UHGV virus genome: UHGV-1550212
Reading direction: 5' to 3' (one strand)
Length of the DNA stretch: 64,000 nucleotides
Origin: a virus
Part shown: positions 3,490 to 61,156 of the stretch, piece by piece
How positions within the stretch are numbered: the first letter of the stretch is position 1
Layout of the letters: every line of letters begins with the position of its first letter
Translations under genes and position numbers: made by a program
The notes under the pieces: generated by a model
The model's database searches: none
Seen by the model: only the letters and a program-made list of their open reading frames with translations
What the model was told of the DNA's origin: nothing

Positions 3490-3518
3490 ATTGTACAACG
3501 CTTTGTGCACATTTGCAA
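3490..3518 (-). promoter_or_regulatory. sigma70-like promoter (TTGCAA-N17-TACAAT on coding strand)
   Basis: Plus-strand ATTGTA at 3490-3495 and TTGCAA at 3513-3518, spacer 17; upstream of 2973..3473. Confidence 0.5.
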
Positions 3519-3522
3519 TCAT

Positions 3523-3550
3523 AAAAAAGCTCAGCCAATTACGGCTGAGC
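3523..3550 (-). terminator. intrinsic terminator
   Basis: Perfect 8-bp stem GCTCAGCC/GGCTGAGC with 6-nt loop, followed on the minus strand by UUUUUU; downstream of 3578..4867. Confidence 0.6.
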
Positions 3551-3577
3551 TTTCATTGAGATGCGTCTTGTCTGCCA

Positions 3578-4867
3578 CTATTCTTTTGGCAGAAGTTCAG
3601 CAATGCGTGACTGCAATTGCTCTTTCTGCTTCAAGTAGCTATCAAGAATTTGCTGATGAGCTGCATAGCCCTCTGATGTCGGGTCCATGCTCTGCATTGT
3701 TACTTGAACTGCAGCAATGTCTGATTCAACATTATTGAGCACTGTTTGATATGCATCAACTTGTGCAGATGCACGAATTGCAGCTTTCATTGCAGTATCA
3801 TAATGTTCACGCCACATTGACTTGATGCATTCGATTTCTGGTGTGCTTACAGAAATTGACTGCAATGCTGCAATGAGTGCAACAATGCCGCCATACACTG
3901 TAATGATGCCAGACTGAGTATCAAGCATATTGAAGTGATTGCCATCAACTGCATATACAATGATAGGCGCAGATTGCAGCTTAACTGAATTGTCGAGAAC
4001 TGCAAGCTTTGTGAACTGCTGTGCTACTGCAATGACTGCATTGCAAATTGCCTCTGCAGTCTCAAATTCGCCAGCAACTTGCATGCTAACTTGATTGAGT
4101 TGCATATAAGTCTTGACTTTCTCAGCGAATTCAAGTGCAGTCATAACTTGTGAATCAAGCTCAACTGCATCTTGGCCAACAATGCGAACATGGCCGACAA
4201 TTGTGTCAGCAAAGAATGCTTCAGTCTTTGGACAATACTGAACAAGTGATATTGCATTCATCAATGCGATAGATTCTGCTGATGGCTCAGATGTTGTAGC
4301 ATACAGCAAATTGCCATCAGACACAGTGAACCACTTGCCAACTACAGGCAGACCCATGATGTCACCTGCAATAATTGCAAGCACATGCTGGCAATCACCT
4401 GTAGCAATGATGTGTTCGGGATTTGCTGCGTAGTAGATGTCTTTTGCCTGCTTAATGAGCGACTTCACCTCAGGGTACATGTCATAATTGTCAAGCACGC
4501 CATCAACTGCAATTGCTCGAATGATTGGCTCATCAGTTGATGCAACATCTACTGCATCTTCGATTGCTGACGCAGCCCTTTGCATATTTGCAGAGCCATC
4601 ACTCATCAAATCCTCCATGACAAGTGATGCTTTGAAGCCAAAGCCATCTGCACCAATTGCTGTTTTCTGTGATTTTGCAAATGCGCGTACAGCAGCATCT
4701 TTGCTATTTGCGGCGCTTTCCAAAATCAATGCAGCTTTTCGAAGAGTCAGACCAGACTTTTTGATTTGTGCAAGTGACTCATTGACAAAGTTTGCACCGC
4801 CAAAAGTCAATGCTTTGATGCCTTTGATACCTTGAACAAATGCATCAACGTTTACAGTATGTTTCAT
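3578..4867 (-). CDS. hypothetical protein with C-terminal coiled-coil
   Basis: 429-aa ORF followed by an intrinsic terminator; C-terminal heptad-like region (QQILDSYLKQKEQLQSRIAELL). Confidence 0.55.
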   Translation of the reverse strand: MKHTVNVDAFVQGIKGIKALTFGGANFVNESLAQIKKSGLTLRKAALILESAANSKDAAVRAFAKSQKTAIGADGFGFKASLVMEDLMSDGSANMQRAASAIEDAVDVASTDEPIIRAIAVDGVLDNYDMYPEVKSLIKQAKDIYYAANPEHIIATGDCQHVLAIIAGDIMGLPVVGKWFTVSDGNLLYATTSEPSAESIALMNAISLVQYCPKTEAFFADTIVGHVRIVGQDAVELDSQVMTALEFAEKVKTYMQLNQVSMQVAGEFETAEAICNAVIAVAQQFTKLAVLDNSVKLQSAPIIVYAVDGNHFNMLDTQSGIITVYGGIVALIAALQSISVSTPEIECIKSMWREHYDTAMKAAIRASAQVDAYQTVLNNVESDIAAVQVTMQSMDPTSEGYAAHQQILDSYLKQKEQLQSRIAELLPKE

Positions 4868-4874
4868 AGTCTAC

Positions 4875-6365
4875 TTATGCCTTTTTAGATTTGCGCTTTG
4901 CGGCAACTACGACTTCTGCTACGATAGCTTCTACAGTAGCTTCAGTTACAACAGACTTGTCTGCAACTTTTACAAGAGCTGCATGCAACTTGTAGTTGCC
5001 GACTTTGCTGAAAGTGCACTTGAATTCTGTTGTTGCGTTGTATTCTGCAGGTACTGCAAAACCACTGTCAGGACCCCATACACCAGTGTCTTCAAATGTC
5101 CAAGACTGTCCTTGTGAATCTGTTGCAGCGAATGTCACATGACCATCTTCAGGTGCTTCTACAATTTCATATTGCAGCTGAACGCCATCAACACCTGCTT
5201 TACCAACGACTTCAGTTGCAAGTGTTGCATTGATTGCAACTTCTGTTGTAGGCTGAATACTTGCAGGGACATCTACAGAAATCTTGTATTCTGACACTTC
5301 AGGCTGAACTGGCTCAGCAACAACTACTGTAGACTCTGCTTCAACAACTACACTGTCATCAGCAACCTTGGCAAGAACTGCATGCAACTTGTATGCGCCT
5401 GCCTTGCTAAAGATTACAGTGAACTTTGTAGTTGCATTGTATTCTGCTGGAATGTCAAAGCCTACTGCAGGACCCCAAGTTCCATTATCGACGAATGTGT
5501 ATTCATTGCCAGTTGTGTCAGTAGCCTTGAATGTCACATGACCATCTTCAGGTGCTACGTCCACGCCATAACGGAACTGAACTTTGTCAACGCCGACGTC
5601 GCCAACAGTCTTCGTTTTGAATGTTGCATCAAGCTCAACTTCAGTGTTTTCGATTATTGTTTCAGGTGCAGACATTTCGAACTCGTACTCAGACACTGTT
5701 TGTGCAGCTTGTTCAAGTTTGATGTTCTTTGTCTTGTTTGAACTCATAGTCTCACGACCAGCATGGCTAATGTAGCCCTCTTTAGACACTTCCCATACAA
5801 TTTCTTCGCCTGACAAAACAGTCAACGAATTGCGAACTTCGCCATTCATCTTGATAACTGCATCTGCAGGTTCTACATTAATTGTCAGTGTAGCTTTGCT
5901 AAGCTTAACAAGCTCCACTACTTGAATGACATCATGATTTGTGAGCGTGATTGTGCCCTCCTGAGATTCATAGCCCTCTTTCGACACTTCCCACTTAATT
6001 GGAATGCCTGCGGGCACATTCTCAAGCATCTTTGTAGCCTCACCATTGATTTCTACATGAGCATCTTCAGGCACTGGCTGAATTGTGATGCTGAACTTGT
6101 CTTTACCAGGTTCAGGGTCTGGTCCGGGTCCTGGGTCATCACCAGTAATTGCAGGGATGATAGTGTTTTCGATGACTTTCTGAGCTTCTGCAGTTGTGCC
6201 ATAGAATTTGAGAGTTTTCTTGGCTTCTTCTACAGACATCTTCTCAAGATTATCTGCAAGATATGTCAGACCAGTGACTGCAGCAATTTTCTGCCGCATT
6301 TCTGGGCTAATGACTACACCAGTAGATTTGACTACTGGAGCAGCTTGTTTTTGTTTCTTTGCCAT
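4875..6365 (-). CDS. protein with tandem internal beta-sandwich-like (Ig-like?) repeats
   Basis: Two ~125-aa near-duplicate blocks (VAPEDGHVTFKATD...PAEYNATTKF / VEAPEDGHVTFAATD...PAEYNATTEF) plus shorter WEVSKEGY repeats; start moved to in-frame ATG (MAKKQKQ) at 6365. Confidence 0.55.
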   Translation of the reverse strand: MAKKQKQAAPVVKSTGVVISPEMRQKIAAVTGLTYLADNLEKMSVEEAKKTLKFYGTTAEAQKVIENTIIPAITGDDPGPGPDPEPGKDKFSITIQPVPEDAHVEINGEATKMLENVPAGIPIKWEVSKEGYESQEGTITLTNHDVIQVVELVKLSKATLTINVEPADAVIKMNGEVRNSLTVLSGEEIVWEVSKEGYISHAGRETMSSNKTKNIKLEQAAQTVSEYEFEMSAPETIIENTEVELDATFKTKTVGDVGVDKVQFRYGVDVAPEDGHVTFKATDTTGNEYTFVDNGTWGPAVGFDIPAEYNATTKFTVIFSKAGAYKLHAVLAKVADDSVVVEAESTVVVAEPVQPEVSEYKISVDVPASIQPTTEVAINATLATEVVGKAGVDGVQLQYEIVEAPEDGHVTFAATDSQGQSWTFEDTGVWGPDSGFAVPAEYNATTEFKCTFSKVGNYKLHAALVKVADKSVVTEATVEAIVAEVVVAAKRKSKKA

Positions 6366-6509: not shown

Positions 6510-7802
6510 CTACAACAATGACGGCACTCGTTGAGTTTCAAGTGGGTCGCTGACATTGATGCCTGTGTATGCAACAAGTCGTTGTATTGGGCCAAGTACG
6601 AGTTTTTCGAACATGAGTCGTTTGTTCATTGGCGGCACATCTGGCATATACTTCGGTGTCGGCATTTCGCCTGGTGCAAAGCCAAATGCATCGCAATATT
6701 GACGAGAGCCAATTGGTATATTTGACAAATCTGACTTTGCTCTGTCAACAAAGTAGTAGAACACTCGACCGCCTTCAATCAATGGGTATCGTGTTTCCAA
6801 TCCATGTGCTTTGACAAGACAGTTATGCCAACAACATGCTCTATATTGAGGCAGTACACCTTTTGCTAACTGCCATTCACCATCATAGCTTAGCACATAG
6901 TCATGATACTTGTTTGCATTGACATATGCACAAAGTTTCTCCAAGTCTTGCTCGGCTTCAAAGCGTTTCCATAATTTCTGTATGAGCTTTGGATATGTCG
7001 CAGAAGTTAATTCGCCTCTGAACATTTTCTTGAATGCATAATCAAGCATTTGTCTAACAAGCATTGACGAGCCTGTTTGAATAAGTTCGATGCCTTTGCC
7101 TTGAATGTGCTCAGTAGGGTCTTCGAATACTCGACCATCTACATATATTTGAGCCTTTAAGTACTTTTTCTTTTGGGCAAATAATGCAGTGTCAGAAATC
7201 GTTTCGAGGTCAAATAGCAAAATTGAATTGCCGTGGCGTTTTGCGAGGTCTGCTGCATATGCACCATTGAATAACTCTTCCATACGATATTTGAATATCG
7301 CAAGAATCAAGTCATACCAATTTTTGCCTATGTAGCCAATTGATTTGACAGTTGGCTCAAAGTGAATGTACAAAGAGTCTGTATCAATGTACAACACTTT
7401 GTCTTCATAAGGCTCTTGCTTTGGCGACACAGACAAATCAAAATTGCCCTTCAATTGTGGGTCATTACGCAGCTTTTCATGCAATTCATAATCACACCAC
7501 CACTTATTGTTGAGATAGTCATTTGCTACTCGTTCACCAAAGTGAATGAAGTTGCGGCCTTCAGCAGTAATTGATTCTGCAACTGCCATATTAAAGAAGT
7601 GATAGAAACGATTGCTTGTAGCGCCATATATTGAGTTTCGACAACATTTTGCTGAGACTTGCAGTCCTGCATGCTTTAGTGATTCTTGCATTGCAAAATC
7701 TCTCAATTCAAATAGACGTTCAGTAGACAACTGGCTTAAATCACCAGTCAAATCTACTCCATCTATTTCAATTTTTGACATATCTATCTGAGCTTCTGCC
7801 AT
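6510..7802 (-). CDS. family B DNA polymerase, C-terminal part (motifs B and C)
   Basis: Contains K-x3-NSxYG (KCCRNSIYGATSN), YIDTDS and KKKY motifs; has its own promoter (7824-7853) and terminator (6453-6494). Confidence 0.85.
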   Translation of the reverse strand: MAEAQIDMSKIEIDGVDLTGDLSQLSTERLFELRDFAMQESLKHAGLQVSAKCCRNSIYGATSNRFYHFFNMAVAESITAEGRNFIHFGERVANDYLNNKWWCDYELHEKLRNDPQLKGNFDLSVSPKQEPYEDKVLYIDTDSLYIHFEPTVKSIGYIGKNWYDLILAIFKYRMEELFNGAYAADLAKRHGNSILLFDLETISDTALFAQKKKYLKAQIYVDGRVFEDPTEHIQGKGIELIQTGSSMLVRQMLDYAFKKMFRGELTSATYPKLIQKLWKRFEAEQDLEKLCAYVNANKYHDYVLSYDGEWQLAKGVLPQYRACCWHNCLVKAHGLETRYPLIEGGRVFYYFVDRAKSDLSNIPIGSRQYCDAFGFAPGEMPTPKYMPDVPPMNKRLMFEKLVLGPIQRLVAYTGINVSDPLETQRVPSLL

Positions 7803-7823: not shown

Positions 7824-7853
7824 ATTGTACTACACATGTTGCAATTTTTGCAA
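7824..7853 (-). promoter_or_regulatory. sigma70-like promoter (TTGCAA-N18-TACAAT)
   Basis: 22 nt upstream of the polymerase C-part ATG (7802). Confidence 0.5.
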
Positions 7854-7943: not shown

Positions 7944-8771
7944 TTAGAATGGCAGGTCGCCATCATCACCTACAGCATCAAAATCAGCAGCAATGTCATA
8001 TACCAACGTCATTGCGATTCGCAAATCACGTTTCTTAGATTTCAGACGCATGATGTCATGACCTGAATTGTTTGTGATGACTGAGCATTCAAACTCTTCA
8101 TTGCCGTCGATGAATGACAGCATTGATTTGTGAATTGTGATTGGCGACAAATCTGACGGATATGACGAATCAATCACATATTCAAAGTTGTTGTTCTTGG
8201 CAATTAGGCCTCGTTCAGTTGTGCGAATCTCAATGCCGGGCAGTTCCTTGTCACCTGTATTCAATGAGCCATACGATGACATGATGCCAAAGTGATTTGA
8301 CGTCAAATCGAGCTTTCTCAGATTTGTTGTGCTATCAAACAGCATTGACATATCATTGTCAGACAGCTCAAAGTAGCCAAGTGATGGCATTGAACAAACC
8401 TGATTGATTTTGAGCTGATTGTTTGAGATTACAATGAGCTCTGCAATTGTATCTGTACCAATTTGTTTGACATAGATTTCAATCATTGCATATGAGCCAA
8501 ATGCAGCAAGTACTCGATTGTTGAATTGCGTGCCATTGTAAATAAGCGCCTTGACTGTGACATCTTTGAGTGTAGACTCATAATGTTCGCAAATGTCAAG
8601 CACATTAAGTGTCTGCGACTTTACAAAGCTACTATTGCCAGCATCAGTTCTGATTCGCTGGTCATTGAGTGAAAAGCTAAGCTTGCCATCGCATTTTAAT
8701 GATGATGCAAACAATGCTCGCAGCATATCAATGTTTGCATTGCGTAACGTAATTTTGTTCAGATTTTCCAT
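7944..8771 (-). CDS. putative replisome/ssDNA-binding protein with SSB-like acidic C-terminal tail
   Basis: Ends ...DFDAVGDDGDLPF, resembling the polymerase-interacting acidic tip of SSBs (DDDIPF). No OB-fold evidence seen by eye, so function is tentative. Confidence 0.4.
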   Translation of the reverse strand: MENLNKITLRNANIDMLRALFASSLKCDGKLSFSLNDQRIRTDAGNSSFVKSQTLNVLDICEHYESTLKDVTVKALIYNGTQFNNRVLAAFGSYAMIEIYVKQIGTDTIAELIVISNNQLKINQVCSMPSLGYFELSDNDMSMLFDSTTNLRKLDLTSNHFGIMSSYGSLNTGDKELPGIEIRTTERGLIAKNNNFEYVIDSSYPSDLSPITIHKSMLSFIDGNEEFECSVITNNSGHDIMRLKSKKRDLRIAMTLVYDIAADFDAVGDDGDLPF

Positions 8772-8805: not shown

Positions 8806-8834
8806 ATTGAACAACATTTGTTGACATTTTGCAA
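8806..8834 (-). promoter_or_regulatory. sigma70-like promoter (TTGCAA-N17-TTCAAT)
   Basis: Upstream of 7944..8771. Confidence 0.45.
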
Positions 8835-10095: not shown

Positions 10096-11601
10096 TTACA
10101 ATTTGATTGCGCCTCTACGAGCAAGCTCTTCTTCAATCAATCGAACATGATTGTTAGCATACCAAAATTGCAATTTTTTGTGATAATTGCGAACGTTGCC
10201 AAGCTGTTCTTGAGTTTCTTTATACATTGAAGGCTCTCTGTTGTCATACAGACAATTGTTGACTGACACAAAGTAATTTGGGTCTGCTTTGTAATGCTCA
10301 ATTTCATCAGGATTTGTTAAACGTCTAATAAAGTTGTCTGGTGAAATATTCGCCGAGCGCATACTTGACGGATACAATGAGTTTGCGTCAACACAGACAA
10401 CCATACGAGCCCAATGGTTAAATGGTTGCTTAACAAAGCCGCCCTCAAATGAATGTACTACATTCTCTGGGCCACCTTGAGCACATACAACTTTGCCGCC
10501 ATATTTGTTGTATAAGTATGTCATCATGACGCCCTCAGATTGCTTAACTGGTCCTTGGCAGTGATTCATGTCAATATTTGTCATATTTGACAATGACATC
10601 ACATTTGATATCAAGTCAGTTTTTGCAGCAATCATTGCATTGACCATAGTATCGACAGCATTGTATGCAATGAATGTGCATGGATGATACAAATACAGCT
10701 CTTTAAGTGTGCAATCATAGGGCAACTTACCTACGCCGAACATACGATGTGCAATGTAGTCAAGTCGCAATGATTCCTTTTGCCACACTGAATAGTCGTA
10801 TGTGTCCATGAGCTGCATGTAGTCATCAATGTACTTGTGATATGGCATACCATTGCCCCAGACAGTTCTGCCAACTGGAGATGCCAATGCTAAATCAATA
10901 TTGTGCATTGCGCATCGATTTTTGACATAGATGTTATCGAAGTCATTGATGTTCCAGCCTGTCAATGCAGGAATGTTTTTGAAGAGCTTAGTCACCCAAA
11001 AATGCAACAATTCATGCTCATTTGCATGTTGAAAAATTTTGACAGTTGGATGTTCTTTCAAATACGCAGCAAAGCAATGTTGACCCATATACTCTTGAAT
11101 GATGCCATTGACAAACTCAAATGCATCATCCAATGTTGGGTTTTGTTTGCCGCAGCTTTTGCGCAAATCATCATCATTCAACAAGTCAACAGTAGTCTGA
11201 ATGACACAATTGCATTGTTCATCGCATGTACTTATTGCATTAATGGGCATTTCAGCTTTGTCAGGCTTTGGAAAGCCATTGCCAATTTCAGTCTCAATAT
11301 CGTAAAAGTACAACTTTGGTCTACGATAAGCAAACAATTCAGCTTTGTCAGCTTCAGGCAATTCAAATAAGAATTGCAGCAAGTCAAATTGATTGAATCG
11401 TTTTGCTGTGACTCGAGTCACTGGCAATTTACGCCAATCTTGAATATCTGCATATTGAGGCTCTACGTGGTCTGATATTTGCCACACTGGAAATTGATAT
11501 GGCTGTTCACAGACTGGGTATGTTTTGATGTCAATGCCACCTTGCTCATTAACATATGAGACTTCAATGCCATGTGACAAATATGCTACGTCAACAATCA
11601 T
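10096..11601 (-). CDS. family B DNA polymerase, N-terminal part (3'-5' exonuclease domain and motif A)
   Basis: Exo I FYDIETE, Exo II NINDFD, Exo III YNAVDT, polymerase motif A DANSLYPS; stops ~100 aa after motif A; own promoter at 11630-11658. Confidence 0.85.
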   Translation of the reverse strand: MIVDVAYLSHGIEVSYVNEQGGIDIKTYPVCEQPYQFPVWQISDHVEPQYADIQDWRKLPVTRVTAKRFNQFDLLQFLFELPEADKAELFAYRRPKLYFYDIETEIGNGFPKPDKAEMPINAISTCDEQCNCVIQTTVDLLNDDDLRKSCGKQNPTLDDAFEFVNGIIQEYMGQHCFAAYLKEHPTVKIFQHANEHELLHFWVTKLFKNIPALTGWNINDFDNIYVKNRCAMHNIDLALASPVGRTVWGNGMPYHKYIDDYMQLMDTYDYSVWQKESLRLDYIAHRMFGVGKLPYDCTLKELYLYHPCTFIAYNAVDTMVNAMIAAKTDLISNVMSLSNMTNIDMNHCQGPVKQSEGVMMTYLYNKYGGKVVCAQGGPENVVHSFEGGFVKQPFNHWARMVVCVDANSLYPSSMRSANISPDNFIRRLTNPDEIEHYKADPNYFVSVNNCLYDNREPSMYKETQEQLGNVRNYHKKLQFWYANNHVRLIEEELARRGAIKL

Positions 11602-11616: not shown

Positions 11617-12027
11617 TTAGAATAGAGATATTGTACAACAATTTGATTCAGGTTGCCATTCTACAATATGCGCATCAAAGTGTTTGTTAAGCCAATGTGC
11701 AAGTATGTGTCTATGACAAAATGCAGATAGTCTGCACCAACATAACAATACAATGTCTCGTTCGCCTGCAAGAATCTTTATGCGATGCAGCATCAAACTT
11801 ATCTGTGACAATGCAGCGTCAAGTTTTGCTGCATATTGCTCTGCATATTGTGCATTGTCAAGCAAGCCTGCTTTATGCAAACGAACAAGTGACATGTAAT
11901 CAGGCATGACGTCAGTCCATGTAAAATCTGCTATGAAGCCCTTAGGCTTTGTTGCAGACACTTGAACAAGAAATGCGTTATCAGGCAGATGCCTGCATGC
12001 ATAATATGAAGTTAAGATTCTTGTCAT
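11617..12027 (-). CDS. hypothetical protein
   Basis: 136-aa ORF with Cys/His-rich C-terminal segment (LLCWCRLSAFCHRHILAHW). Confidence 0.45.
   Translation of the reverse strand: MTRILTSYYACRHLPDNAFLVQVSATKPKGFIADFTWTDVMPDYMSLVRLHKAGLLDNAQYAEQYAAKLDAALSQISLMLHRIKILAGERDIVLLCWCRLSAFCHRHILAHWLNKHFDAHIVEWQPESNCCTISLF
11630..11658 (-). promoter_or_regulatory. sigma70-like promoter (TGGCAA-N17-TACAAT)
   Basis: 29 nt upstream of the polymerase N-part ATG (11601); lies inside the 3' end of the preceding gene. Confidence 0.5.
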
Positions 12028-12947
12028 TCTACAATAATTGTTGCAAGTTTGTTAATTGGCTGTATGAACACATCAAAACCCTTAACAGTGCCGAACGCGT
12101 TTCGTTTGACTGCATATAACATTGCAGTGTTCACATCATGCTTTGCATAACGAGTTTCAATGACTTGACTGATGTAGCCTTTTGAGTCTCGAATGTATTC
12201 TATGCTTGTAGCAATTTTGTTTGCTTTGATAGAATTTACTGTTATCAATGCATCATTCTGACCATACGCATATTGCATTGTTGCTGTAGATGGCTTTGCA
12301 GCATTTACACTTAACTGCTGAATGACTTGCATTTTGCGACCATGCGAATCATAGTAATATGTGAATGTGCATGGAAACTTGCCAACCAAACTGTTCAAAT
12401 GATGCAACTGCTCATAATGATAGCTGAACTGCACTACACTGCTATTAGATTCGCAAATGCTGCTTGGTCTATAGTAGCCATTGAAGTACCCATACTGAAT
12501 TGAGTATGTTTCAAAACGACCTCTACGATACAAACTCAACAAACTAAGCATATTCGTCGCTTCATCAATATGCAAGAACTTGATGTCTGCGCATGCATTG
12601 CTCTTGGCATAATCAGCTGCATTCCACTTATCAACGACTTTCCAAGAGTAGCATTTGATGCTTTGATTGCGCTCATTGACAAAGTGTATACCATTTGACT
12701 GCACCTTTACAATGTCATAGCAATTCAAATGCCCATTACTGTCAATGAATTTTTGCAGCCAATTTAAAGCCATGATGTTTGTTGCAAATGTCTGTGCAAA
12801 TGCAATTTGGCCATCTGCAAATGCTGCAGTGTATGTCTTGTTCTTATCGTAGATTGGCAATGTCGCATCTGCATATGATGCTGCTACAAATGCATAGCCA
12901 ATCACATTATTCTCAGAACTCAAATTAGAGTGTCTTAACTGTTCCAT
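12024..12947 (-). CDS. hypothetical protein
   Basis: 307-aa ORF; 4-nt overlap with downstream gene. Confidence 0.5.
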   Translation of the reverse strand: MEQLRHSNLSSENNVIGYAFVAASYADATLPIYDKNKTYTAAFADGQIAFAQTFATNIMALNWLQKFIDSNGHLNCYDIVKVQSNGIHFVNERNQSIKCYSWKVVDKWNAADYAKSNACADIKFLHIDEATNMLSLLSLYRRGRFETYSIQYGYFNGYYRPSSICESNSSVVQFSYHYEQLHHLNSLVGKFPCTFTYYYDSHGRKMQVIQQLSVNAAKPSTATMQYAYGQNDALITVNSIKANKIATSIEYIRDSKGYISQVIETRYAKHDVNTAMLYAVKRNAFGTVKGFDVFIQPINKLATIIVE

Positions 12948-13722: not shown

Positions 13723-13751
13723 ATTGTACAACGCTAAGTGTCATTTTGCAC
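13723..13751 (-). promoter_or_regulatory. sigma70-like promoter (GTGCAA-N17-TACAAT)
   Basis: Upstream of 13110..13679. Confidence 0.5.
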
Positions 13752-15303: not shown

Positions 15304-15540
15304 TTATTCGAAATCCGTGTCATCTGCATTTTCATTAGGGTCATAGATAAGCCATACAAATGCTGCACAGCCAAGTATGAATAAGCCTCCGCCAATGATT
15401 GTCGTAAAAACCGAACCAATCCAATGCTTCATAATATCACCGAGCGGATTCAATGTTTCATAGCCAATCATAAATGCGACAAATACAACTATTATTGCTG
15501 CTATTGCTTTGTTTGTGGTATTTCGTTTTATTGTTGCCAT
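15304..15540 (-). CDS. small membrane protein (2 predicted TM helices)
   Basis: Track ORF trimmed to ATG at 15540 (MATIKRNT...); the longer form would run through the conserved leader element and promoter; hydrophobic segments AIAAIIVVFVAFMIGY and TTIIGGGLFILGCAAFVWLIY. Confidence 0.45.
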   Translation of the reverse strand: MATIKRNTTNKAIAAIIVVFVAFMIGYETLNPLGDIMKHWIGSVFTTIIGGGLFILGCAAFVWLIYDPNENADDTDFE

Positions 15541-15567
15541 TGTAGTAGAGGTTTGTTGTGTTCTGTA

Positions 15568-15608: not shown

Positions 15609-15637
15609 ATATTACAACACGCAAATCATTTTTGCAC
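15609..15637 (-). promoter_or_regulatory. sigma70-like promoter (GTGCAA-N17-TAATAT)
   Basis: Upstream of 15304..15540; the conserved leader element lies between -10 and the ATG. Confidence 0.45.
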
Positions 15638-15663
15638 ACTTTTATAAACCAAATTTCACAAAA

Positions 15664-29039: not shown

Positions 29040-29068
29040 TATATTACAACATTTGTTGTCAATTTGCA
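29040..29068 (-). promoter_or_regulatory. sigma70-like promoter (GTGCAA-N17-TAATAT)
   Basis: Upstream of 28789..29010. Confidence 0.45.
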
Positions 29069-29100
29069 CAATTGTTGTTAACAAAATGCATTACATTGAC

Positions 29101-32837: not shown

Positions 32838-32866
32838 ATAATACTACAATCAGCATACATTTGCAC
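32838..32866 (-). promoter_or_regulatory. sigma70-like promoter (GTGCAA-N17-TATTAT)
   Basis: Upstream of the Rad3/DinG-like helicase; leader contains the conserved element. Confidence 0.45.
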
Positions 32867-34319: not shown

Positions 34320-34344
34320 ATTTTGGGATGTTTGTTTTTTATTA

Positions 34345-35439
34345 TCATACAACGATAGTATCTCGTTTGCAATCTGTTTTGTCAAATATTGAACAACAAT
34401 ACGATGCAGATTGTTCTTTGATTTCAAGAGCTTCATCATTATCAAGTGATGAAATGCCATCTATGTATGCTTTTGCATTGCCAGCAATGTCATCATTTGT
34501 TAACAACGCTGCACGACGTTCAGTGCCAAAGAAGCCAAAGCACAATTGATGTTGCAGTGCTTCACGAGAAGTCTTGTCATCAAACTCTGATTTCATGTGT
34601 TGCATAAATTCGACAATATCATCAATGTCGCATTGAGTAAAGTCAATGCACAATTTATGCATGTACTTGAATCGTTTGTAGTCTGTTGCAAGAATTTCTG
34701 GGTGCACAATGAACAACGTCTTTTTGCTGTCTATTGGATTTGCAATGACTGATGCTTGAACATAATCGACAAGCATACCAGATTCACGAAGTTGCTCAAT
34801 TGTTTTGCCAAACACATGCCCAAGCGTGTCATCAAACCACTTCAAGTATGCTTCACTGTCTTCATCTTTTGACGCGCCAACAATGTAAATCTCATTGACT
34901 CCAAGTGCTTTGAGACGAGTATCAGACAACATAGTATTCAATTGATGCTGCACGTACAGCATTGGGCTGCTATGCAAAACCGTTTTAACAATCTCACAAG
35001 CAATGTCCATATATGCATAGTCAAGCTTTGCAGATTTTGACACATACACTGCACGTTGCTGCAATGGCTCAATTGCCGAGCATGTAGTTACAAAGTTGCC
35101 AACACATTCTGCTACTGCAATGTCATGCAAGTCATCTGCAATGTACACAATACTTGACAAGTCATCAAATGTTTGAACAAGTTGCTGAAGCTTTGTTTTG
35201 TAATTGCAGAGCATCAATGACTTGATGTTGCAATTACTTAGCATTGTCTTGATGAGTCGTTGACCTGCTTCAGTGCTGTCACCAGAAATGACATGCACAT
35301 CGCAGTCAAACCAGTTCAGCATGTCAATTGCATGCCGAACACCATATTGCATTTGTTTTGCAAACTTACCAGATTCATTGAACAGCATTTCACCTGACAT
35401 AATGCCGTCAAAGTCACATACGATTTGAAGTCTGTCCAT
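34345..35439 (-). CDS. HAD-superfamily (KdsC-like) sugar-phosphate phosphatase domain protein with unknown C-terminal domain
   Basis: IVCDFDGIMSGEMLFNESGKF (DxDG motif I), VHVISGDS, YIADDLHDIAV (motif IV), resembling KdsC/YrbI-type phosphatases. Confidence 0.5.
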   Translation of the reverse strand: MDRLQIVCDFDGIMSGEMLFNESGKFAKQMQYGVRHAIDMLNWFDCDVHVISGDSTEAGQRLIKTMLSNCNIKSLMLCNYKTKLQQLVQTFDDLSSIVYIADDLHDIAVAECVGNFVTTCSAIEPLQQRAVYVSKSAKLDYAYMDIACEIVKTVLHSSPMLYVQHQLNTMLSDTRLKALGVNEIYIVGASKDEDSEAYLKWFDDTLGHVFGKTIEQLRESGMLVDYVQASVIANPIDSKKTLFIVHPEILATDYKRFKYMHKLCIDFTQCDIDDIVEFMQHMKSEFDDKTSREALQHQLCFGFFGTERRAALLTNDDIAGNAKAYIDGISSLDNDEALEIKEQSASYCCSIFDKTDCKRDTIVV

Positions 35440-35749: not shown

Positions 35750-35803
35750 TGTATGAGTGATTTTACTGTTATACATTTATGTTATATATGCACATTGTGC
35801 CAG

Positions 35804-39789: not shown

Positions 39790-39818
39790 ATTGTACAACA
39801 TATGTTATCATTTTGCAA
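39790..39818 (-). promoter_or_regulatory. sigma70-like promoter (TTGCAA-N17-TACAAT)
   Basis: Upstream of the SbcD-SbcC gene; leader contains the conserved element. Confidence 0.55.
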
Positions 39819-43536: not shown

Positions 43537-43565
43537 ATTGTACAACATGCAAAATGCATTTGCAT
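43537..43565 (-). promoter_or_regulatory. sigma70-like promoter (ATGCAA-N17-TACAAT) with adjacent 17-bp tandem repeats
   Basis: Followed ~55 nt downstream by the terminator-like hairpin 43438-43481. Confidence 0.4.
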
Positions 43566-43594: not shown

Positions 43595-43601
43595 TATATT
43601 G

Positions 43602-44411: not shown

Positions 44412-44440
44412 ACAGTACAACGTAGTTATGCTCATTGCAC
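44412..44440 (-). promoter_or_regulatory. weak sigma70-like promoter (GTGCAA-N17-TACTGT)
   Basis: Upstream of the dNMP kinase gene; -10 is a poor match. Confidence 0.3.
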
Positions 44441-47151: not shown

Positions 47152-47848
47152 ATGCTTTGCAATTATCTATTACATGTTGATATTGTACTTCATCTATGAT
47201 GTGATTTGCAATGACACCATATGACGTGTCATACATTGGCATCTTCTCATATGACAATGCTGCGTCAAGATTGCATATCACATAATTGCAATGCACAATG
47301 TCATCTACATTGTCACTAACTGCTACGATATTGACGCAATTTGCAAGAAATGCATCATCAAAGTCTACTTGATTGCATGCAACCTCATAATCTGCAGCAC
47401 TTCTTGGGTACCAATATAACTCAATGCCGGCACTACTAAGTAGTCGCAAGCCATCTATGTGATGATACAAGTCAACAAAATGCACTTGCTTAACGCCTGC
47501 TTGCAAAATAAGCTTTGCGCAATCAATGCATGGACTATATGTTACATATAGCACTGCGTCATTTGCAGTCGCATTGCCATATTTGCACAGCTTCATCAAT
47601 GCATTTGATTCTGCATGCAAAACTTCTTTGTTGGTTTTGATGCCTGCTGATGTTGCATGTTCACAACAATTTGACATGCCAGTTGGCATGCCATTGTAGC
47701 CATCTGAAATTATGCAGCCATCTTTTACAAGCAATGCGCCGACTTTTGCTCGCTGAGCATGTGAATTTAATGACCAGAGCTCAGCCATTTTAAGATATAT
47801 GAGATTTCGTTGAAACCACTTTGTTTCAGACCAAGTTAGCCATTTCAT
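47123..47848 (-). CDS. dCMP deaminase (zinc-dependent cytidine/deoxycytidylate deaminase family)
   Basis: HAESNAL and YSPCIDCAKLI zinc-binding motifs; ~90-aa C-terminal extension. Confidence 0.8.
   Translation of the reverse strand: MKWLTWSETKWFQRNLIYLKMAELWSLNSHAQRAKVGALLVKDGCIISDGYNGMPTGMSNCCEHATSAGIKTNKEVLHAESNALMKLCKYGNATANDAVLYVTYSPCIDCAKLILQAGVKQVHFVDLYHHIDGLRLLSSAGIELYWYPRSAADYEVACNQVDFDDAFLANCVNIVAVSDNVDDIVHCNYVICNLDAALSYEKMPMYDTSYGVIANHIIDEVQYQHVIDNCKAYEQTLHFEI
47181..47210 (-). promoter_or_regulatory. sigma70-like promoter (TTGCAA-N18-TACAAT)
   Basis: Upstream of 45985..47151, inside the 3' end of the dCMP deaminase gene. Confidence 0.45.
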
Positions 47849-49264: not shown

Positions 49265-49293
49265 ATTGTACAACATGTATTGAGCTTTTGCAC
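49265..49293 (-). promoter_or_regulatory. sigma70-like promoter, proximal of a tandem pair (GTGCAA-N17-TACAAT)
   Basis: 29 nt upstream of the GT-B gene ATG (49235). Confidence 0.5.
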
Positions 49294-49317: not shown

Positions 49318-49346
49318 ATTGTACAACATAAAGTGCATACTTGCAC
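49318..49346 (-). promoter_or_regulatory. sigma70-like promoter, distal of a tandem pair (GTGCAA-N17-TACAAT)
   Basis: ~53 bp upstream of the first copy; a third, degenerate unit overlaps the terminator palindrome. Confidence 0.45.
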
Positions 49347-52344: not shown

Positions 52345-52384
52345 ATCTTTGTATTTTTGTTATTGCAGTTATATTTATACGCAA

Positions 52385-52844: not shown

Positions 52845-52873
52845 AATGTACTACGTAGCATCAACTTTTGCAC
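52845..52873 (-). promoter_or_regulatory. sigma70-like promoter (GTGCAA-N17-TACATT)
   Basis: Upstream of 52385..52825. Confidence 0.45.
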
Positions 52874-55771: not shown

Positions 55772-55800
55772 ATTGTATAACATGCAAAGTACTTTTGCAC
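55772..55800 (-). promoter_or_regulatory. sigma70-like promoter (GTGCAA-N17-TACAAT)
   Basis: Upstream of 54554..55684 with ~87-nt leader. Confidence 0.5.
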
Positions 55801-56967
55801 TTATCTTGCATGACCACAGTCATCTGCAAGCAGTTTAGCATGACCGCAGTCATATACTGCAACATAACCGACGTCAATCATCTCTTGTTCATCTTGACCG
55901 ATATCTTCAATATGTTCTTTTGTCTTCAAATGACACCAGTGCTTATGAATGGTTGACTTGTCATCTGACAACTGCGGGTTGAGCGCGAAGTCAGCTGAGT
56001 CTACTTGTTCACCTGCAAGATGCTTTCTAATGGCGTCAATGACTTCGTTGTCATCCATCCATTCGAATATTGTAATGCAAGTGTAGCCATGCTTAAGAGC
56101 AAGTTGAGTTTTGTCGAAGTGGTAGAATTTGCCAACTGGCTTATTGTGTTTTGTGCGCCCAGTTAAATATGCAAAGCCATATGTTGCATTGTGTGACCAA
56201 AGAGGATTAACTTCAATCAAAAGTTTGCAGTATTCATTACAATAGTCAAGGTCATATGACCATCGCCCAAGATTGACATTATCAAGCCCGCAATCAATAC
56301 CAAGTTCTTGCAGCAATTTGTCGTGCCACCAATGGTTTGCTCGTGATTTTACATGACCTTGAGCATCACGGCATTTAGTAGTCATACAAAACCATGGCAC
56401 ACCATGTCGTTCCATATTGACTTCTTGAACGCGTTCAAGATTGCCGCTCTTATTGCCATAACGTTGCTGTTTTGTTTGCAATGCAGCATCAATATTGCCC
56501 CATGCATTGCCATATCGTTTTACAACAGTTTGTTTGCGTTTTTCAACATCACAGCACTTATTGCCATATTTACGCAATTTAGTGTCAAATGCTTTTTGTG
56601 TATTGCCTATGCCACGTTTGCCCCATTTGCGCTCTTTGCCTTGTTGACATCGTTCTTGGTCACCCCATGTGCTGCCATATCGTTCTAAATTTGTTTGTCT
56701 ACGTTTTTCAACATTGCCTGCTTTGCATCCATGTCGTGCTAAATTTGTTTGTTGTTGTTTAGCTACGCAATCTTTGTTACGTGCAGGAAATTCAACGCCT
56801 AATGAACGTAGACAGCCAATTCTACGATTATAATTACGTTTAATATTGCCGTGTGATGTTTTACAAGGCCCATATCTTACAAACTCAGTTGTTCTCAACA
56901 ACTCATCTCGCTCTTGCTCAAGCTCTGCAATGCGCTTCTCAAGAGCTTCACCAGTTAGTGGCGTCAT
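55801..56967 (-). CDS. tandem-repeat protein (RYG/KYG units) with C-terminal nuclease-like domain; paralog of 1777..2976
   Basis: Same architecture: LTGEALEKRIAELEQERDELL coiled coil, repeats (ARHGCKAG, ERYGSTWG, KYGNKCC, RYGNAWG, RYGNKSG), C-terminal LLIEVNP...H. Confidence 0.55.
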   Translation of the reverse strand: MTPLTGEALEKRIAELEQERDELLRTTEFVRYGPCKTSHGNIKRNYNRRIGCLRSLGVEFPARNKDCVAKQQQTNLARHGCKAGNVEKRRQTNLERYGSTWGDQERCQQGKERKWGKRGIGNTQKAFDTKLRKYGNKCCDVEKRKQTVVKRYGNAWGNIDAALQTKQQRYGNKSGNLERVQEVNMERHGVPWFCMTTKCRDAQGHVKSRANHWWHDKLLQELGIDCGLDNVNLGRWSYDLDYCNEYCKLLIEVNPLWSHNATYGFAYLTGRTKHNKPVGKFYHFDKTQLALKHGYTCITIFEWMDDNEVIDAIRKHLAGEQVDSADFALNPQLSDDKSTIHKHWCHLKTKEHIEDIGQDEQEMIDVGYVAVYDCGHAKLLADDCGHAR

Positions 56968-59972: not shown

Positions 59973-60263
59973 TTATGCTCGTACGAGTTTGATGACACAG
60001 TGCCGACAAGCTGCAAAAGTACTCAATATTGTTTCTACTTTGACACTGTACTGCACGTCAATGACACGATATGTGCCACACAATGCAGACATTTCTTGAC
60101 GACGTTCTGCAGGTACATTGACACTGTCTGTCAAATTGATGATTGCGCCAATCTGCATAGATGACATGACTGCAAATTGTTCGGGACCTACTTCTGCTTT
60201 GCGATATGCGACTTGTTTGTTGTTTTCGCAAATGCTGAATGCTACTATATAATCTGGTGTCAT
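59973..60263 (-). CDS. hypothetical small protein
   Basis: 96-aa ORF. Confidence 0.35.
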   Translation of the reverse strand: MTPDYIVAFSICENNKQVAYRKAEVGPEQFAVMSSMQIGAIINLTDSVNVPAERRQEMSALCGTYRVIDVQYSVKVETILSTFAACRHCVIKLVRA

Positions 60264-60275
60264 GATAGTCGCGTT

Positions 60276-60755
60276 TTATTCATTATCGTCATCATATCCT
60301 ATGCAATCTTCAAGACTTGCAAAGTCATCATCAAAGTCATCGAATTCAGGCTCTTTATTGCACCATTTGTAAGGTGGATTGTTGAGCAATTCAAGCTCTA
60401 TTGCATTTGACTGTGCAGAAATCGGAACATATTCGAATGCTTTGACTGACATGTTAAATTTGATACAATGCAGCCACGGAAACATATCAGTGTCCTCATG
60501 CACAATTGGCTGACGAACGTAGTCTTTCATTGCAATGAACTTGCTGCTGTCGTCCCAGTCTTCAATAGGTATTTCAAACTGCGATATGACAGTATGACAG
60601 CTTTCAAAGAAATTGCAGGATACACCTACAATAACATGAGAGTCTGTACGTTGGCGTTCTATTGCAAGAAAGTCATATTTCTTAGAAAGACGAACTTCTC
60701 CATGCTTCTCTAAGAAGATTTTAAGAAGCTCTTTGTTAATGTCGTTGATGTTCAT
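60276..60755 (-). CDS. hypothetical protein with strongly acidic C-terminus
   Basis: 159 aa ending EFDDFDDDFASLEDCIGYDDDNE. Confidence 0.45.
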   Translation of the reverse strand: MNINDINKELLKIFLEKHGEVRLSKKYDFLAIERQRTDSHVIVGVSCNFFESCHTVISQFEIPIEDWDDSSKFIAMKDYVRQPIVHEDTDMFPWLHCIKFNMSVKAFEYVPISAQSNAIELELLNNPPYKWCNKEPEFDDFDDDFASLEDCIGYDDDNE

Positions 60756-60777
60756 TGTTGTAGAGATTTTAAGTTGT

Positions 60778-61089
60778 TTAATGCCGAGTTTTTGCAGATA
60801 TAGCTACTTTAATTGTTGCTTTAATTTGTTCGATTGCATCTTGTGAGAACAATTCTGACACTGCTAAATAGTGATACCATGATGTTGGCGCTGCCTGCAT
60901 ATCAGTTCGTTTAATTGCGAACCGAAGTTCTTTTGGTGAACCAAGGCAACCCATATATTGGCAGCTTATTAGCTTAACTTGCACATTGTTAATGCTGCTA
61001 TGAATAGCAAGATGAGACAGATTTATTCTGTCATAGAATTTTAGATGCTTGAGTTGTTTTTCAATTGCTTTGAATGTGTTTGTGTTCAT
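60778..61089 (-). CDS. hypothetical protein
   Basis: 103-aa ORF with promoter at 61128-61156 and the shared initiation context. Confidence 0.4.
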   Translation of the reverse strand: MNTNTFKAIEKQLKHLKFYDRINLSHLAIHSSINNVQVKLISCQYMGCLGSPKELRFAIKRTDMQAAPTSWYHYLAVSELFSQDAIEQIKATIKVAISAKTRH

Positions 61090-61127
61090 TGTTGTAGAGG
61101 TTTTATATCATATATTGATATATGATA

Positions 61128-61156
61128 ATTATACTACAACAATCATAAATTTGCAC
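61128..61156 (-). promoter_or_regulatory. sigma70-like promoter (GTGCAA-N17-TATAAT)
   Basis: Consensus -10; upstream of 60778..61089, in the divergent region shared with the plus-strand genes. Confidence 0.5.

Follow-up and report, generated by a model that had tools for sequence, protein, structure and literature searches.

The window, the whole stretch of 64,000 nucleotides of the virus genome UHGV-1550212 that was analysed here, belongs to a phage of the T4 superfamily whose genome is ~176 kb long and which comes from gut metagenomes of humans and pigs. The T4-like proteins present are a gp23-type capsid protein, gp13, gp2, the T4 portal, gp32, a gp44 lid domain and a gp55-like protein. 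According to comparative genomics, phages of this group (jumbo-phage group 2) encode sigma factors and have no RNA polymerase of their own (PMC7824862). The evidence points to a host among the Bacteroidota.

About 20 copies of a putative bipartite promoter with the consensus (G/T)TGCAAA-N10-TGT(T/A)G-TAcAAT-N6-A and rigid spacing were found in the window, all on the minus strand. They are co-oriented with the genes and lie near start codons, several directly behind strong intrinsic terminators. The copy TTGCAA-N17-TACAAT at 3490..3518 stands 6 nt after a terminator with a 13-bp stem (3554-3525) and is the predicted promoter of the gp55-like late sigma factor gene (2973..3473, ATG 3473; phrog_234, E 2.5e-7, with a weak Pfam Sigma70_r2 match). 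A copy with an 18-nt spacer (7824..7853) comes after a terminator with a stem of 14 bp (7901-7871) and would drive the C-terminal subunit of a family-B DNA polymerase (6510-7802). The exonuclease/N-terminal subunit (10096-11601), followed by dUTPase and MazG genes, would be driven by TGGCAA-N17-TACAAT at 11630..11658. TTGCAA-N17-TTCAAT (8806..8834) and GTGCAA-N17-TACAAT (13723..13751) lie upstream of a 275-aa ORF (7944-8771) and a 189-aa ORF (ATG 13679), respectively. GTGCAA-N17-TAATAT occurs both at 15609..15637, downstream of a 1113-aa virion-type gene, and at 29041..29069, where, behind a 12-bp-stem terminator (29137-29109), it would drive small ORFs with an exonuclease-like gene after them.

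Further along, three copies would serve enzyme genes: GTGCAA-N17-TATTAT (32838..32866) a DEAD_2/Helicase_C_2 helicase (30902-32779) with thymidylate synthase behind it, TTGCAA-N17-TATGAT (34344..34372) a second thymidylate-synthase-like gene (ATG 34319), and TTGCAA-N17-TACAAT (39790..39818), via a conserved structured leader, a 1308-aa SbcCD-like nuclease/ATPase (35804-39730). ATGCAA-N17-TACAAT at 43537..43565 is followed by ~105 nt without an ORF, ending in a strong terminator, and this unit is a candidate small RNA. GTGCAA-N17-TACTGT (44412..44440) precedes a 190-aa ORF (ATG 44386), and TTGCAA-N18-TACAAT (47182..47211), which has no GTTG element, precedes a 388-aa ORF (ATG 47151). A tandem pair, both GTGCAA-N17-TACAAT, consists of a proximal copy (49265..49293) upstream of a 460-aa ORF (ATG 49235) and a distal copy (49318..49346) 36 nt after a 13-bp-stem terminator (49411-49382). 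GTGCAA-N17-TACATT at 52845..52873 lies upstream of a 146-aa ORF (ATG 52825) and then a thioredoxin gene, and GTGCAA-N17-TACAAT at 55772..55800 upstream of a 376-aa ORF and then a ResIII/DEAD helicase. The copy GTGCAA-N17-TATAAT at 61128..61156 opens the minus-strand block, opposite a divergent plus-strand block, and would drive a series of small ORFans. Two candidates are doubtful, namely the weak TAACAA-N17-TAGAAT (12026..12054) at the end of an ORF (12024-12947) and the weakest, GTGCAT-N17-AACAGT (35765..35793).

The original prediction had placed the element 20-60 nt upstream of start codons. This is roughly right, as the -10 hexamer lies 16-68 nt from the first plausible ATG in 15 of the 20 copies, with a total range of about 15-120 nt (15-118 nt as measured). 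A correction of the ORF start by means of the motif is plausible in four cases, where the longest ORF overruns the promoter and a downstream ATG is likelier (3518 to 3473, 15675 to 15540, 34460 to 34319 and 35776 to 35749). Six terminators with long stems (at least 12 pairs) are present in positions 1-60000, all on the minus strand, and four of the six have a copy within ~60 nt downstream. Overall, the genes behind the copies are those for DNA polymerase subunits, two helicases, the SbcCD-like nuclease, thymidylate synthases, dUTPase/MazG, the gp55-like sigma and small ORFans. The weight matrix found no copy between 15614 and 29046, a block that contains the 1113-aa gene as well as baseplate and neck genes, gp13-like in the relatives, nor did any occur in the 10 kb beyond the start of the window, where the gp2 and portal genes lie.

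Pattern scans of the window gave nine minus-strand and no plus-strand matches for the literal form [GT]TGCAA-N16-19-TACAAT, and eight and none, respectively, for GTTGTACAAT. The looser core TGCAA-N13-GT[TA]GTA was matched 14 times on the minus strand and never on the plus strand, and 200 dinucleotide-preserving shuffles yielded a mean of 0.17 and a maximum of 2. When the spacing was scanned from N5 to N24, N13 gave 14 matches, N14 gave two and each other spacing gave 0-1. An all-against-all dyad search of the window ranked TGCAA-N13-GTTGT as the top dyad de novo (13 observed vs 0.73 expected, Poisson p ~1e-12). A weight matrix converged on 20 minus-strand sites, two of them weak (12031 and 35770), and on no plus-strand site at the same cut-off. 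The predicted number of at least 17 copies was confirmed, and the first (3490-3518) and last (61128-61156) copies coincide exactly with the limits that had been given for the family.

Over all 20 weight-matrix sites, including the two weak ones, the -35 element was conserved at T-34 (16/20), G-33 (17/20), C-32 (18/20), A-31 (20/20), A-30 (19/20) and A-29 (16/20). Upstream of the -10 hexamer the conserved bases were T-17 (15/20), G-16 and T-15 (19/20 each) and G-13 (18/20), and within the hexamer T-12 and A-11 (19/20 each) and T-7 (20/20). All 20 copies had an A seven bases after T-7, at the expected +1 place, and transcription would start at this invariant A. The spacer was 17 nt, or 18 nt in two copies, in agreement with the sigma70-type pair with 17-18 nt spacing that had been proposed. 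Taken together, the -35-like hexamer, the 17-bp spacer, TAnnnT and the A present in every copy at +1 make up a geometry of the sigma-70 family. As also stated in the original prediction, the -35 element is not TTGACA (the motif as a whole is not TTGACA/TATAAT), and the pattern does not match the Bacteroidetes TTTG/TAnnTTTG type. Scanning the window with generic sigma-70 consensus patterns gave only chance levels (64, 53 and 51 matches vs 54.5, 55.5 and 54.1 expected). The original prediction was borne out in all the parts that could be checked.

In a sister strain (94.5% identical), 56.6 kb outside the window were scanned with a matrix trained on the window alone, which identified 16 sense sites and no antisense site, for a total over window and sister strain of at least 35 sense copies and no antisense copy. 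In the sister strain, a copy was also found upstream of topoisomerase II. The exact motif was present in 12 copies, on one strand, on the sister-strain contig and at most once on any other IMG/VR contig. Relatives with a 57-63% identical DNA polymerase keep aaaaGTGCAAa-N10-TTGTAG-TACAAT-ATtCATATA between unalignable flanks, and the syntenic slot after the 1113-aa gene, where the window has the copy 15609..15637, carries the motif in the relatives L060, L062 and L064. Between the two strains, 3.8% of positions differed in the TGTwG-TAcAAT block compared to 9-10.5% in the spacer and flanks. The -35 element was conserved no better than the flanks, in part owing to the pairing of one site with a paralogue. 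The strains also differed by an insertion carrying a duplicated gene end and promoter and by a repeat indel adjoining a copy.

We consider it very probable that the motif marks the promoters used before the late stage (early, middle or both) by this ~176-kb T4-superfamily phage infecting gut Bacteroidota. Single boxes are frequent in this A/T-rich genome (162 copies of TTGCAA in the window, and 58-64 of TACAAT per strand), as they would be if the motif were due to chance or composition. However, the combined pattern was ~80-fold above the shuffle expectation, with total strand bias and one spacing, and it recurred in independent sequence and in diverged relatives. A chance origin has therefore practically no probability; the shuffles, the de novo dyad ranking and the independent copies in the sister strain refute it, and the repeated motif is real. 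The motif might instead chiefly bind a DNA-binding protein of the phage, such as a repressor, an activator or a nucleoid protein, or be a cassette for recombination; the strain insertion and the repeat indel described above count in favour of this reading. TGT (-17 to -15) is the reverse complement of ACA (-11 to -9), and both TTGTACAA and TTGTAgTACAA read as palindromes, which suggests that a dimeric DNA-binding protein may also use the site; in three copies, a longer inverted repeat (ATGTTG...CAACAT) surrounds the -10 element. Against this, the symmetry centres differ between the two palindromic variants while the conservation of G-16, T-15, G-13, T-12, A-11 and T-7 is the same, and a T to A change at -14 usually comes without a change at its symmetric partner, -9. 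The strictly one-stranded occurrence, the second, non-symmetric element at a fixed 17-bp spacing, the invariant A at +1 and the location between terminators and start codons also speak for a promoter, and a role chiefly in protein binding or recombination is improbable. A late promoter class recognised by the gp55-like sigma is still less credible. The phage does encode such a protein, and the octamer TAcAATAT matches the T4 late promoter TATAAATA at 5/8 positions, but the motif is missing from the virion-gene blocks and stands before replication, nucleotide-metabolism and gp55-like genes. Moreover, its rigidly spaced -35 element is conserved, whereas gp55-type sigmas, as known from T4, have no -35-binding domain.

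In Bacteroidota, 70-81% of primary start sites have TAnnTTTG or TAnnTTTCA at -7 in their sigma-A promoters, and classical -35/-10 boxes are reportedly absent (PMC7366714; bioRxiv 10.1101/2024.04.05.588293; PMC9723704). The assignment of the phage to a host of this phylum is itself inferred. Since the motif differs from this consensus, its recognition probably needs a phage-specified factor, either an RpoD-like phage sigma or a protein remodelling the host sigma, a reading to which we give close to an even chance. RpoD-like phage sigmas are present in relatives (MA9V-1 ORF23 and PAU gp1). A somewhat unlikely alternative is that the unmodified host primary sigma reads the same promoters directly, as it does T4 early promoters. 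In that case, the odd consensus would be that of a strong host-type promoter with a flavour specific to the phage, or the sigma-A of the true host would have a different taste. Within ~132 kb of the ~176-kb genome, the gp55-like protein was the sole sigma found, and no AsiA or MotA relative turned up. Several observations fit direct reading: no second sigma gene was found in the 75% searched; the motif also precedes a small-ORFan cluster typical of immediate-early regions; no host-type promoter family able to express a phage factor first was found on the coding strand; and T-12, A-11 and T-7, the most conserved bases, are common to all sigma-70-family -10 elements including TAnnTTTG. In the distant relative MA9V-1, a Chryseobacterium phage, the corresponding slots are filled by a host-like family, TTTTCA-N18-TAAATTTA, and this fits direct reading just as well as a switch in specificity. 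On the other side, the motif has A, A and T at -8, -6 and -5 instead of T, T and G, and no TTTG near -33. Canonical boxes adjoin the phage motif on the other strand (61146 and 61182) and also occur in presumed host DNA, and thus the host type is present and is different from the motif.

The layout has parallels in known systems. As with the early and middle promoters of T4, the phage has no RNA polymerase of its own and reuses the host core enzyme; dozens of near-identical bipartite promoters precede small early genes and genes for replication and nucleotide metabolism; their consensus differs from the host average and is tighter; and a gp55-type late sigma gene is under a pre-late promoter while virion genes use another signal. 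T4 early promoters are GTTTAC/TATAAT and T4 middle promoters have the MotA box TGCTTtA at -30. In contrast, the family in the window has (G/T)TGCAAA at -35 and TGTwG-TAcAAT, no MotA or AsiA relative was found in the ~132 kb, and the motif is not a sharpened host consensus, the host phylum using TTTG/TAnnTTTG and not TTGACA/TATAAT. With Bacteroidota sigma-A promoters (-33 TTTG, -7 TAnnTTTG) it shares two boxes, T-12, A-11 and T-7, and an A-rich, Shine-Dalgarno-free downstream leader, but it has AATA/T instead of TTTG at -8 to -5, no TTTG at -33, and strongly conserved TGCAAA (-34 to -29) and TGTwG (-17 to -13). The MA9V-1 family, TTTTCAyATGTCG-N-ATGCT-TAAATTTA, is found at equivalent sites of a genome that is syntenic (after a large virion gene and before replication genes) and is likewise bipartite, with an 18-bp gap and highly similar copies, but it is of the Bacteroidota host type and the family in the window is not. 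A phage-wide, host-unlike -35/-10 pair with fixed spacing that marks a temporal class is also seen at the promoters read by phage-encoded sigma factors, such as gp28 of Bacillus phage SPO1; for the phage studied here such a sigma is suggested only by the relatives named above. In the PeSL cassettes of T4-type phages, a terminator hairpin followed by a conserved early promoter is repeated through the genome (PMC2839356, PMC4122927). The terminator-then-promoter order at 3554/3518, 7901/7853, 29137/29069 and 49411/49346 is similar, as is the strain difference that duplicates a gene end together with a promoter, but long-stem terminators adjoin a minority of the window copies, and the phage lineage and the promoter sequence differ.

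Judged from sequence, each promoter would combine a -35 element (G/T)TGCAAA, preceded by a stretch rich in A, with a -10 element TAcAAT; the 17-bp spacer between them is A/T-rich and ends with TGT(T/A)G (-17 to -13), and an A stands at +1. The host core RNA polymerase with a sigma-70-family specificity subunit would bind such a promoter and transcribe leftward through units of one to several genes, stopping at intrinsic terminators, and many copies directly behind the terminator of the preceding unit would form the promoter-early stem-loop (PeSL) arrangement. The predicted timing is pre-late. Virion genes, which have no motif, would presumably be served by the gp55-like late sigma, whose gene would itself be under a motif promoter. 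The promoter family is an ordinary one for a phage, except that it is unlike the type normally read by the presumed host.

In the window, the motif (G/T)TGCAAA-N10-TGT(T/A)G-TAcAAT-N6-A was confined to the minus strand, which is the coding strand. The literal pattern [GT]TGCAA-N16-19-TACAAT occurred nine times on the minus strand and never on the plus strand, and GTTGTACAAT was found eight times and zero times, respectively. A short degenerate core, TGCAA-N13-GT[TA]GTA, was chosen against circularity, and this gave 14 minus-strand and no plus-strand matches, compared to a mean of 0.17 and a maximum of 2 expected by chance in 200 dinucleotide-preserving shuffles. When gaps of 5-24 nt were scanned, nearly every match had N13 (14 matches) or N14 (2 matches). 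Motif discovery, which the original prediction had proposed as a check, was carried out by enumerating every 5-mer/gap/5-mer dyad in the window, and TGCAA-N13-GTTGT ranked first, with 13 observed and 0.73 expected occurrences. An iterated weight matrix converged on 20 sites, every one on the minus strand, of which those at 12031 and 35770 were weak. The predicted minimum of 17 copies was thus reached, and the predicted span, 3490-61156, ran exactly from the outer edge of the first copy to that of the last.

The 20 sites were aligned with the TAcAAT hexamer at -12 to -7. An A-rich stretch at -41 to -36 preceded the -35 element (G/T)TGCAAA at -35 to -29, in which C-32 was present in 18, A-31 in all 20 and A-30 in 19 of the sites. 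The A/T-rich spacer between the hexamers was 17 bp long, or 18 bp in two copies, and ended in TGT(T/A)G at -17 to -13 (G-16 and T-15 in 19/20, G-13 in 18/20). In the -10 element TAcAAT, T-12 and A-11 were found in 19/20 and T-7 in 20/20, and all 20 sites had an A at the canonical +1, seven nt past T-7 (for example at 39783, 13716 and 49258). This geometry is that of a sigma-70-family promoter: a TAnnnT hexamer at -10 with A-11 and T-7 conserved, a second conserved element 17 +/- 1 bp upstream of that hexamer, and copies that lie upstream of genes in the same orientation. Typical copies (TTGCAA/TACAAT) matched the E. coli-type TTGACA/TATAAT at 9 of 12 positions. A generic TTGACA/TATAAT scan of the window was at chance level, with 64, 53 and 51 matches against 54.5, 55.5 and 54.1 expected, and the promoter family is therefore defined by its own consensus and not by that of E. 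coli, as anticipated when its -35 element was described as other than TTGACA.

The genes lie almost without exception on the minus strand. All copies were on the coding strand, with the first plausible ATG 15-118 nt downstream. Between 1 and 60000 there were six terminators with stems of at least 12 pairs, all on the minus strand, and a copy followed within about 60 nt after four of them (3554-3525, 7901-7871, 29137-29109 and 49411-49382); most of the remaining copies had no long-stem terminator. A looser, self-made terminator finder matched 57% of random positions and was set aside for the standard terminator scan. A stem-loop terminator directly upstream of a conserved promoter is the arrangement of the promoter-early stem-loop (PeSL) cassettes of T4-type phages (PMC2839356, PMC4122927). 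The genes downstream of the copies encoded both polymerase subunits, both helicases, the SbcCD-like protein, both thymidylate-synthase-like proteins, the dUTPase/MazG unit, the gp55-like sigma and several ORFans, including a run of small genes at 58-61 kb. Zero copies were found in 15614-29046, which holds the baseplate, neck and 1113-aa protein genes, or in the 10 kb past the window start that carries gp2 and the portal gene, and there was no copy in the 528 bp upstream of the capsid gene. The distribution over gene classes therefore suggests that the motif marks a pre-late class.

Other readings of the motif were weighed against these results. TGT at -17 to -15 and ACA at -11 to -9 are reverse complements, and two common variants, TTGTACAA and TTGTAgTACAA, are palindromic. 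The symmetry was treated as secondary because the two variants share their position-specific conservation but have different symmetry centres. An operator or recombination site that is not a promoter would be a poor fit to the strand bias, the spacing, the A at +1 and the gene class, and the same four features make chance a lesser alternative as well. A late promoter was also considered. T4 late promoters have TATAAATA at -10, lack a -35 element and lie upstream of virion genes. Here, in contrast, the octamer reads TAcAATAT and is accompanied by a -35 element, and the blocks of virion genes are without the motif, so this alternative also fits poorly. By analogy with T4, transcription of the late genes presumably requires the gp55-like sigma. 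No convincing late motif was found upstream of the virion genes; TCATAA was weakly enriched (11 observed, 2.3 expected), in the form TCATAA(A/G) upstream of several genes without the main motif. The T4 late consensus TATAAATA had two copies only, both on the minus strand, at 52372-52379, 27 nt before the ATG of the thioredoxin gene, and at 62732-62739, just past a terminator at the inner end of an IS element. We consider that the motif probably represents early and/or middle promoters, read by the host core RNA polymerase with a sigma-70-family subunit and starting at the invariant A, and that the copies are often arranged in PeSL-like cassettes with the terminator ahead of the promoter.

Several RNA features were observed close to promoter copies. 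After the copy at 43537-43565, about 105 nt without an ORF (~43430-43536, minus strand) form a candidate phage small RNA with a fold z-score of -5.4 and, at its end, a strong intrinsic terminator made up of GATGGCTGCTGC...GCAGCAGCCATC and six T. No Rfam family matched anywhere in the window, including this candidate. Three copies were followed by a conserved leader, TATATGTTCTCATATATT(T)CGAACATAAT, at 39731-39784, 32780-32830 and 15560-15600 on the minus strand. In two of the three, upstream of the SbcCD-like and helicase genes, a perfect hairpin, TCTAAAT-CTC-ATTTAGA, came next and ended 0-2 nt before the start codon; the leader block and hairpin may be an element of translational or RNA-processing control. 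Three promoter-proximal small ORFs shared AAACCTCTAC(A/T)ACA directly before the ATG (61089-61105, 29010-29026 and 15540-15556, minus strand), with a fourth such site, AAATCTCTACAACA, at 60755. This shared leader may reflect a conserved context for translation initiation or duplication of a cassette.

The motif was also found outside the window. On the ~94.5%-identical IMG/VR contig of a sister strain, TGCAA-N12-TGTTGTACAAT occurred 12 times, all on a single strand, and no other IMG/VR contig had more than one occurrence. When the matrix trained on the window was applied to the 56.6 kb of the sister contig outside the window, 16 sense and 0 antisense sites were found. Adding the 19 sites in the window that pass this cut-off brings the total to about 35 copies in about 130 kb, with no antisense match over 64 kb plus 57 kb. 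Three metagenomic relatives, with a polymerase subunit only 57-63% identical, retained aaaaGTGCAAa-N10-TTGTAG-TACAAT-ATtCATATA on the gene strand with flanks that could not be aligned, and one of the relatives' sites occupied the syntenic slot directly after the 1113-aa gene. Between the two close strains, 3.8% of positions were changed in the TGTwG-TAcAAT block, compared to 9-10.5% in the spacer and flanks. The -35 element showed no excess conservation between them, an outcome to which the pairing of one site with a paralogue contributed.

The strains also differed by larger changes. In the sister strain, an insertion of about 1.2 kb near 10092 held 281 nt that resemble 55834-56114, a gene end that adjoins the promoter at 55777 on its upstream side. 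About 1 kb was replaced at 20318-21383, about 770 bp were inserted near 59950, and a 17-nt repeat indel lay at 43566-43590, just upstream of the promoter at 43542. With regard to PeSL cassettes as borders of rearrangements, the insertion near 10092 involved a promoter-adjacent gene end and the other indels were away from cassettes.

The phage itself belongs to the T4 superfamily. The window encodes a split family-B DNA polymerase, two helicases, an SbcCD-like fusion protein, two thymidylate-synthase-like proteins, dUTPase, MazG, dCMP deaminase, thioredoxin, a gp32-like protein, glycosyltransferases, a head-fibre protein, a baseplate protein and a gp55-like late sigma. The DNA of this phage that adjoins the window encodes a gp23-type capsid protein, a T4-type portal, gp2, sheath, topoisomerase II, ribonucleotide reductase and a gp44-like clamp loader, and a gp13-like neck protein was seen in the relatives' loci. 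The window was 99.98% identical to a 176,073-bp contig (k119_106340) of ENA metagenome assembly ERZ27261301, on which the window takes up roughly 110,438-174,437 and which extends 1.6 kb beyond the window end, and about 94.5% identical to the IMG/VR contig (175,564 bp). The same phage was present in further assemblies with record names that point to the Zeevi 2015 human-gut cohort (samples such as SAMEA3664939), and in pig-gut samples. Its strains are represented by contigs of 176, 175.5, 153.7, 128.6 and 79.6 kb. A megablast search with 12 kb found no close relatives in the phage collection, where relatives were only distant and detected at the protein level. For the 1113-aa protein, identity to the nearest isolates was only 23-31%; these were Chryseobacterium phages MA9V-1 and MA9V-2, Sphingomonas phage PAU, Tenacibaculum phages, a Flavobacterium phage and Prevotella Lak phages. 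Tenacibaculum phage PTm1 and the Lak phages belong to the T4-related 'group 2' of large phages, which have no RNA polymerase of their own and encode sigma factors (PMC7824862). Towards the remainder of the genome, a metagenome scan gave only a 41% relative on a 2-kb contig, and homologues of the 102-aa edge protein pointed to a rearranged relative that bears tail-fibre-like genes. Genes for dCMP deaminase, dUTPase/MazG, the two thymidylate-synthase-like proteins and several glycosyltransferase-like proteins (GT47-like, beta-glucosyltransferase-like) lie at 29156-30214, 33438-34319 and 40152-47151. This set of nucleotide-metabolism and glycosyltransferase genes suggests hypermodification, and possibly glycosylation, of the bases in the phage DNA; hypermodified bases have reportedly been found in the relative PAU.

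Three lines of evidence point to a host among the Bacteroidota. The isolated relatives infect Bacteroidota, with the exception of Sphingomonas phage PAU. A Shine-Dalgarno core was present in only 1 of 62 genes and the sequence upstream of start codons was depleted in G and enriched in A, which is the Bacteroidota pattern (PMC6847099). Finally, an IS1595-family element of 2,574 bp at the right end of the window had a 100% identical copy in a non-phage contig. The flank of that contig led to 98.9%-identical DNA encoding a TonB-receptor Plug domain, DUF4249 and an outer-membrane beta-barrel, with TAnnTTTC boxes about 30 nt before start codons, and the nearest transposases in reference genomes were from Alistipes, Dysgonomonas, Myroides and Prevotella. 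The element, a lead to the host, occupies 62663-64000 and about 1.2 kb past the window end, with terminal inverted repeats GACATCTATATACTTyAATGTACCAA. It carries the gene of a 306-aa transposase just beyond the window, together with a 39-aa ORF and, at 62798-63799 on the minus strand, a lipoprotein-like passenger of 333 aa that contains BNR-type repeats.

In Bacteroidota, a TAnnTTTG (or TAnnTTTCA) box lies at -7 of 70-81% of primary start sites, and promoters of the primary sigma are reported to lack classical -35/-10 boxes (PMC7366714; bioRxiv 10.1101/2024.04.05.588293; PMC9723704). The proposal that the phage motif is not of this TTTG/TAnnTTTG type held for both boxes. At the -7 box, A-8 was found in 17, A-6 in 15 and T-5 in 12 of the 20 sites, so that only T-12, A-11 and T-7 of the sigma-A box are retained, and -35 to -29 read (G/T)TGCAAA, with TGCAAA in place of the TTTG at -33. 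TAnnTTTG was not enriched on the coding strand of the window (23 occurrences, compared to 36 on the other strand), and TTTG-N18-21-TAnnTTTG was found only once per strand. We also asked whether the -35 element could be a host -7 box read on the opposite strand, since the reverse complement of GTGCAAAnnTA is TAnnTTTGCAC, and rejected this, as the required TA was present in only 3 of 20 copies. In contrast to the window motif, the family TTTTCAyATGTCGnAAAAAATGCT-TAAATTTA-TAC, repeated at least eight times in 43 kb of MA9V-1 (record positions 85-118 kb), is of the Bacteroidota host -33/-7 type and occupies the same kinds of slot. The MA9V-1 genome paper does not mention promoters (PMC10537231).

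If the motif does comprise early and/or middle promoters, their specificity could be supplied by the phage or by the host. Specificity conferred by a phage-specified factor is a reading that falls just short of being probable; it is favoured by a motif unlike the host type and by RpoD/RpoS-like sigmas in relatives, namely MA9V-1 ORF23 (PMC10537231) and PAU gp1. Direct reading by the host sigma-A, which we regard as rather unlikely, has in its favour that no phage RpoD/RpoS-like gene was seen in about 132 kb of the ~176-kb genome and that there was no host-type promoter family able to express a phage factor first. In the window and about 68 kb of the sister strain, the search for a second sigma or an AsiA/MotA-like protein returned only the gp55-like sigma; Pfam covered almost every predicted ORF and PHROGs a selection of about 50, and divergent homologues could escape such a search. 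The MA9V-1 sigma had no tblastn match in the DNA analysed, and PAU gp1 itself scored only 48 bits against it. T4 middle promoters carry the MotA box (a/t)(a/t)(a/t)TGCTT(t/c)A centred at -30, in contrast to the TGCAAA at -34 to -29 found here.

The plus-strand block from 61.2 kb was considered as a host-read early source of the specificity factor. Despite two canonical -7 boxes, this idea was dropped because what the block encodes resembles beta-rich structural or fibre proteins, with counterparts in a relative that adjoin large genes, one of which had a faint BACON-domain match. The divergent intergenic region facing these beta-rich, fibre-like genes lies at 61140-61330 on the plus strand, opposite to the motif, and its -7 boxes are TAAATTTG at 61146 and TAAATTTCA at 61182. 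A run of seven G (~61254-61262) separates an ATG at 61212 from the ORF 61280-61912 in a different frame, and a change of two bases in its length (or one fewer) would fuse them. The run could reflect phase variation or an assembly error.

A more speculative reading, somewhat less likely than not, is that a lineage of T4-like phages of gut Bacteroidota abandoned TTTG/TAnnTTTG for the classical-looking TGCAAA-N17-TAcAAT, preceded by TGTwG, which the host sigma-A would be unable to read. The switch would span almost the whole pre-late programme. Because the host sigma-A could not read the motif, the phage would need a specificity factor of its own, which might be an RpoD-like sigma, a sigma-remodelling protein or a factor delivered with the virion. 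Such a factor would retarget the Bacteroidota RNA polymerase and make phage transcription orthogonal to that of the host. The phage's pair of thymidylate-synthase-like genes and its several glycosyltransferases also raise the possibility that recognition is altered in part by hypermodification of its DNA.

Phage-wide conserved families of pre-late promoters and terminator-promoter cassettes are already known in T4-like phages; new here are this consensus and this phage lineage. The surprise is that a phage whose host, judged from sequence, is probably a member of the Bacteroidota would use a -35/-10 promoter of classical appearance, in a phylum whose primary sigma is reported to work without such boxes. 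The motif provides a predicted transcription map of an uncultured gut phage of about 176 kb, which shows the units and where they probably start, corrects ORF starts and includes one candidate small RNA, and it divides the genome into pre-late and late parts. To our knowledge, there are few expression tools for Bacteroides and Prevotella, in which E. coli signals are not functional. If the host sigma-A reads the motif, the recognition range of the unusual Bacteroidota primary sigma would be widened. If it cannot, the phage must encode a factor that redirects the Bacteroidota RNA polymerase to a new type of promoter. If true, a host-takeover step of this kind would be indicated for the first time among Bacteroidota T4-like phages, and a strong host-orthogonal promoter with its cognate factor would be useful for engineering Bacteroides and Prevotella.
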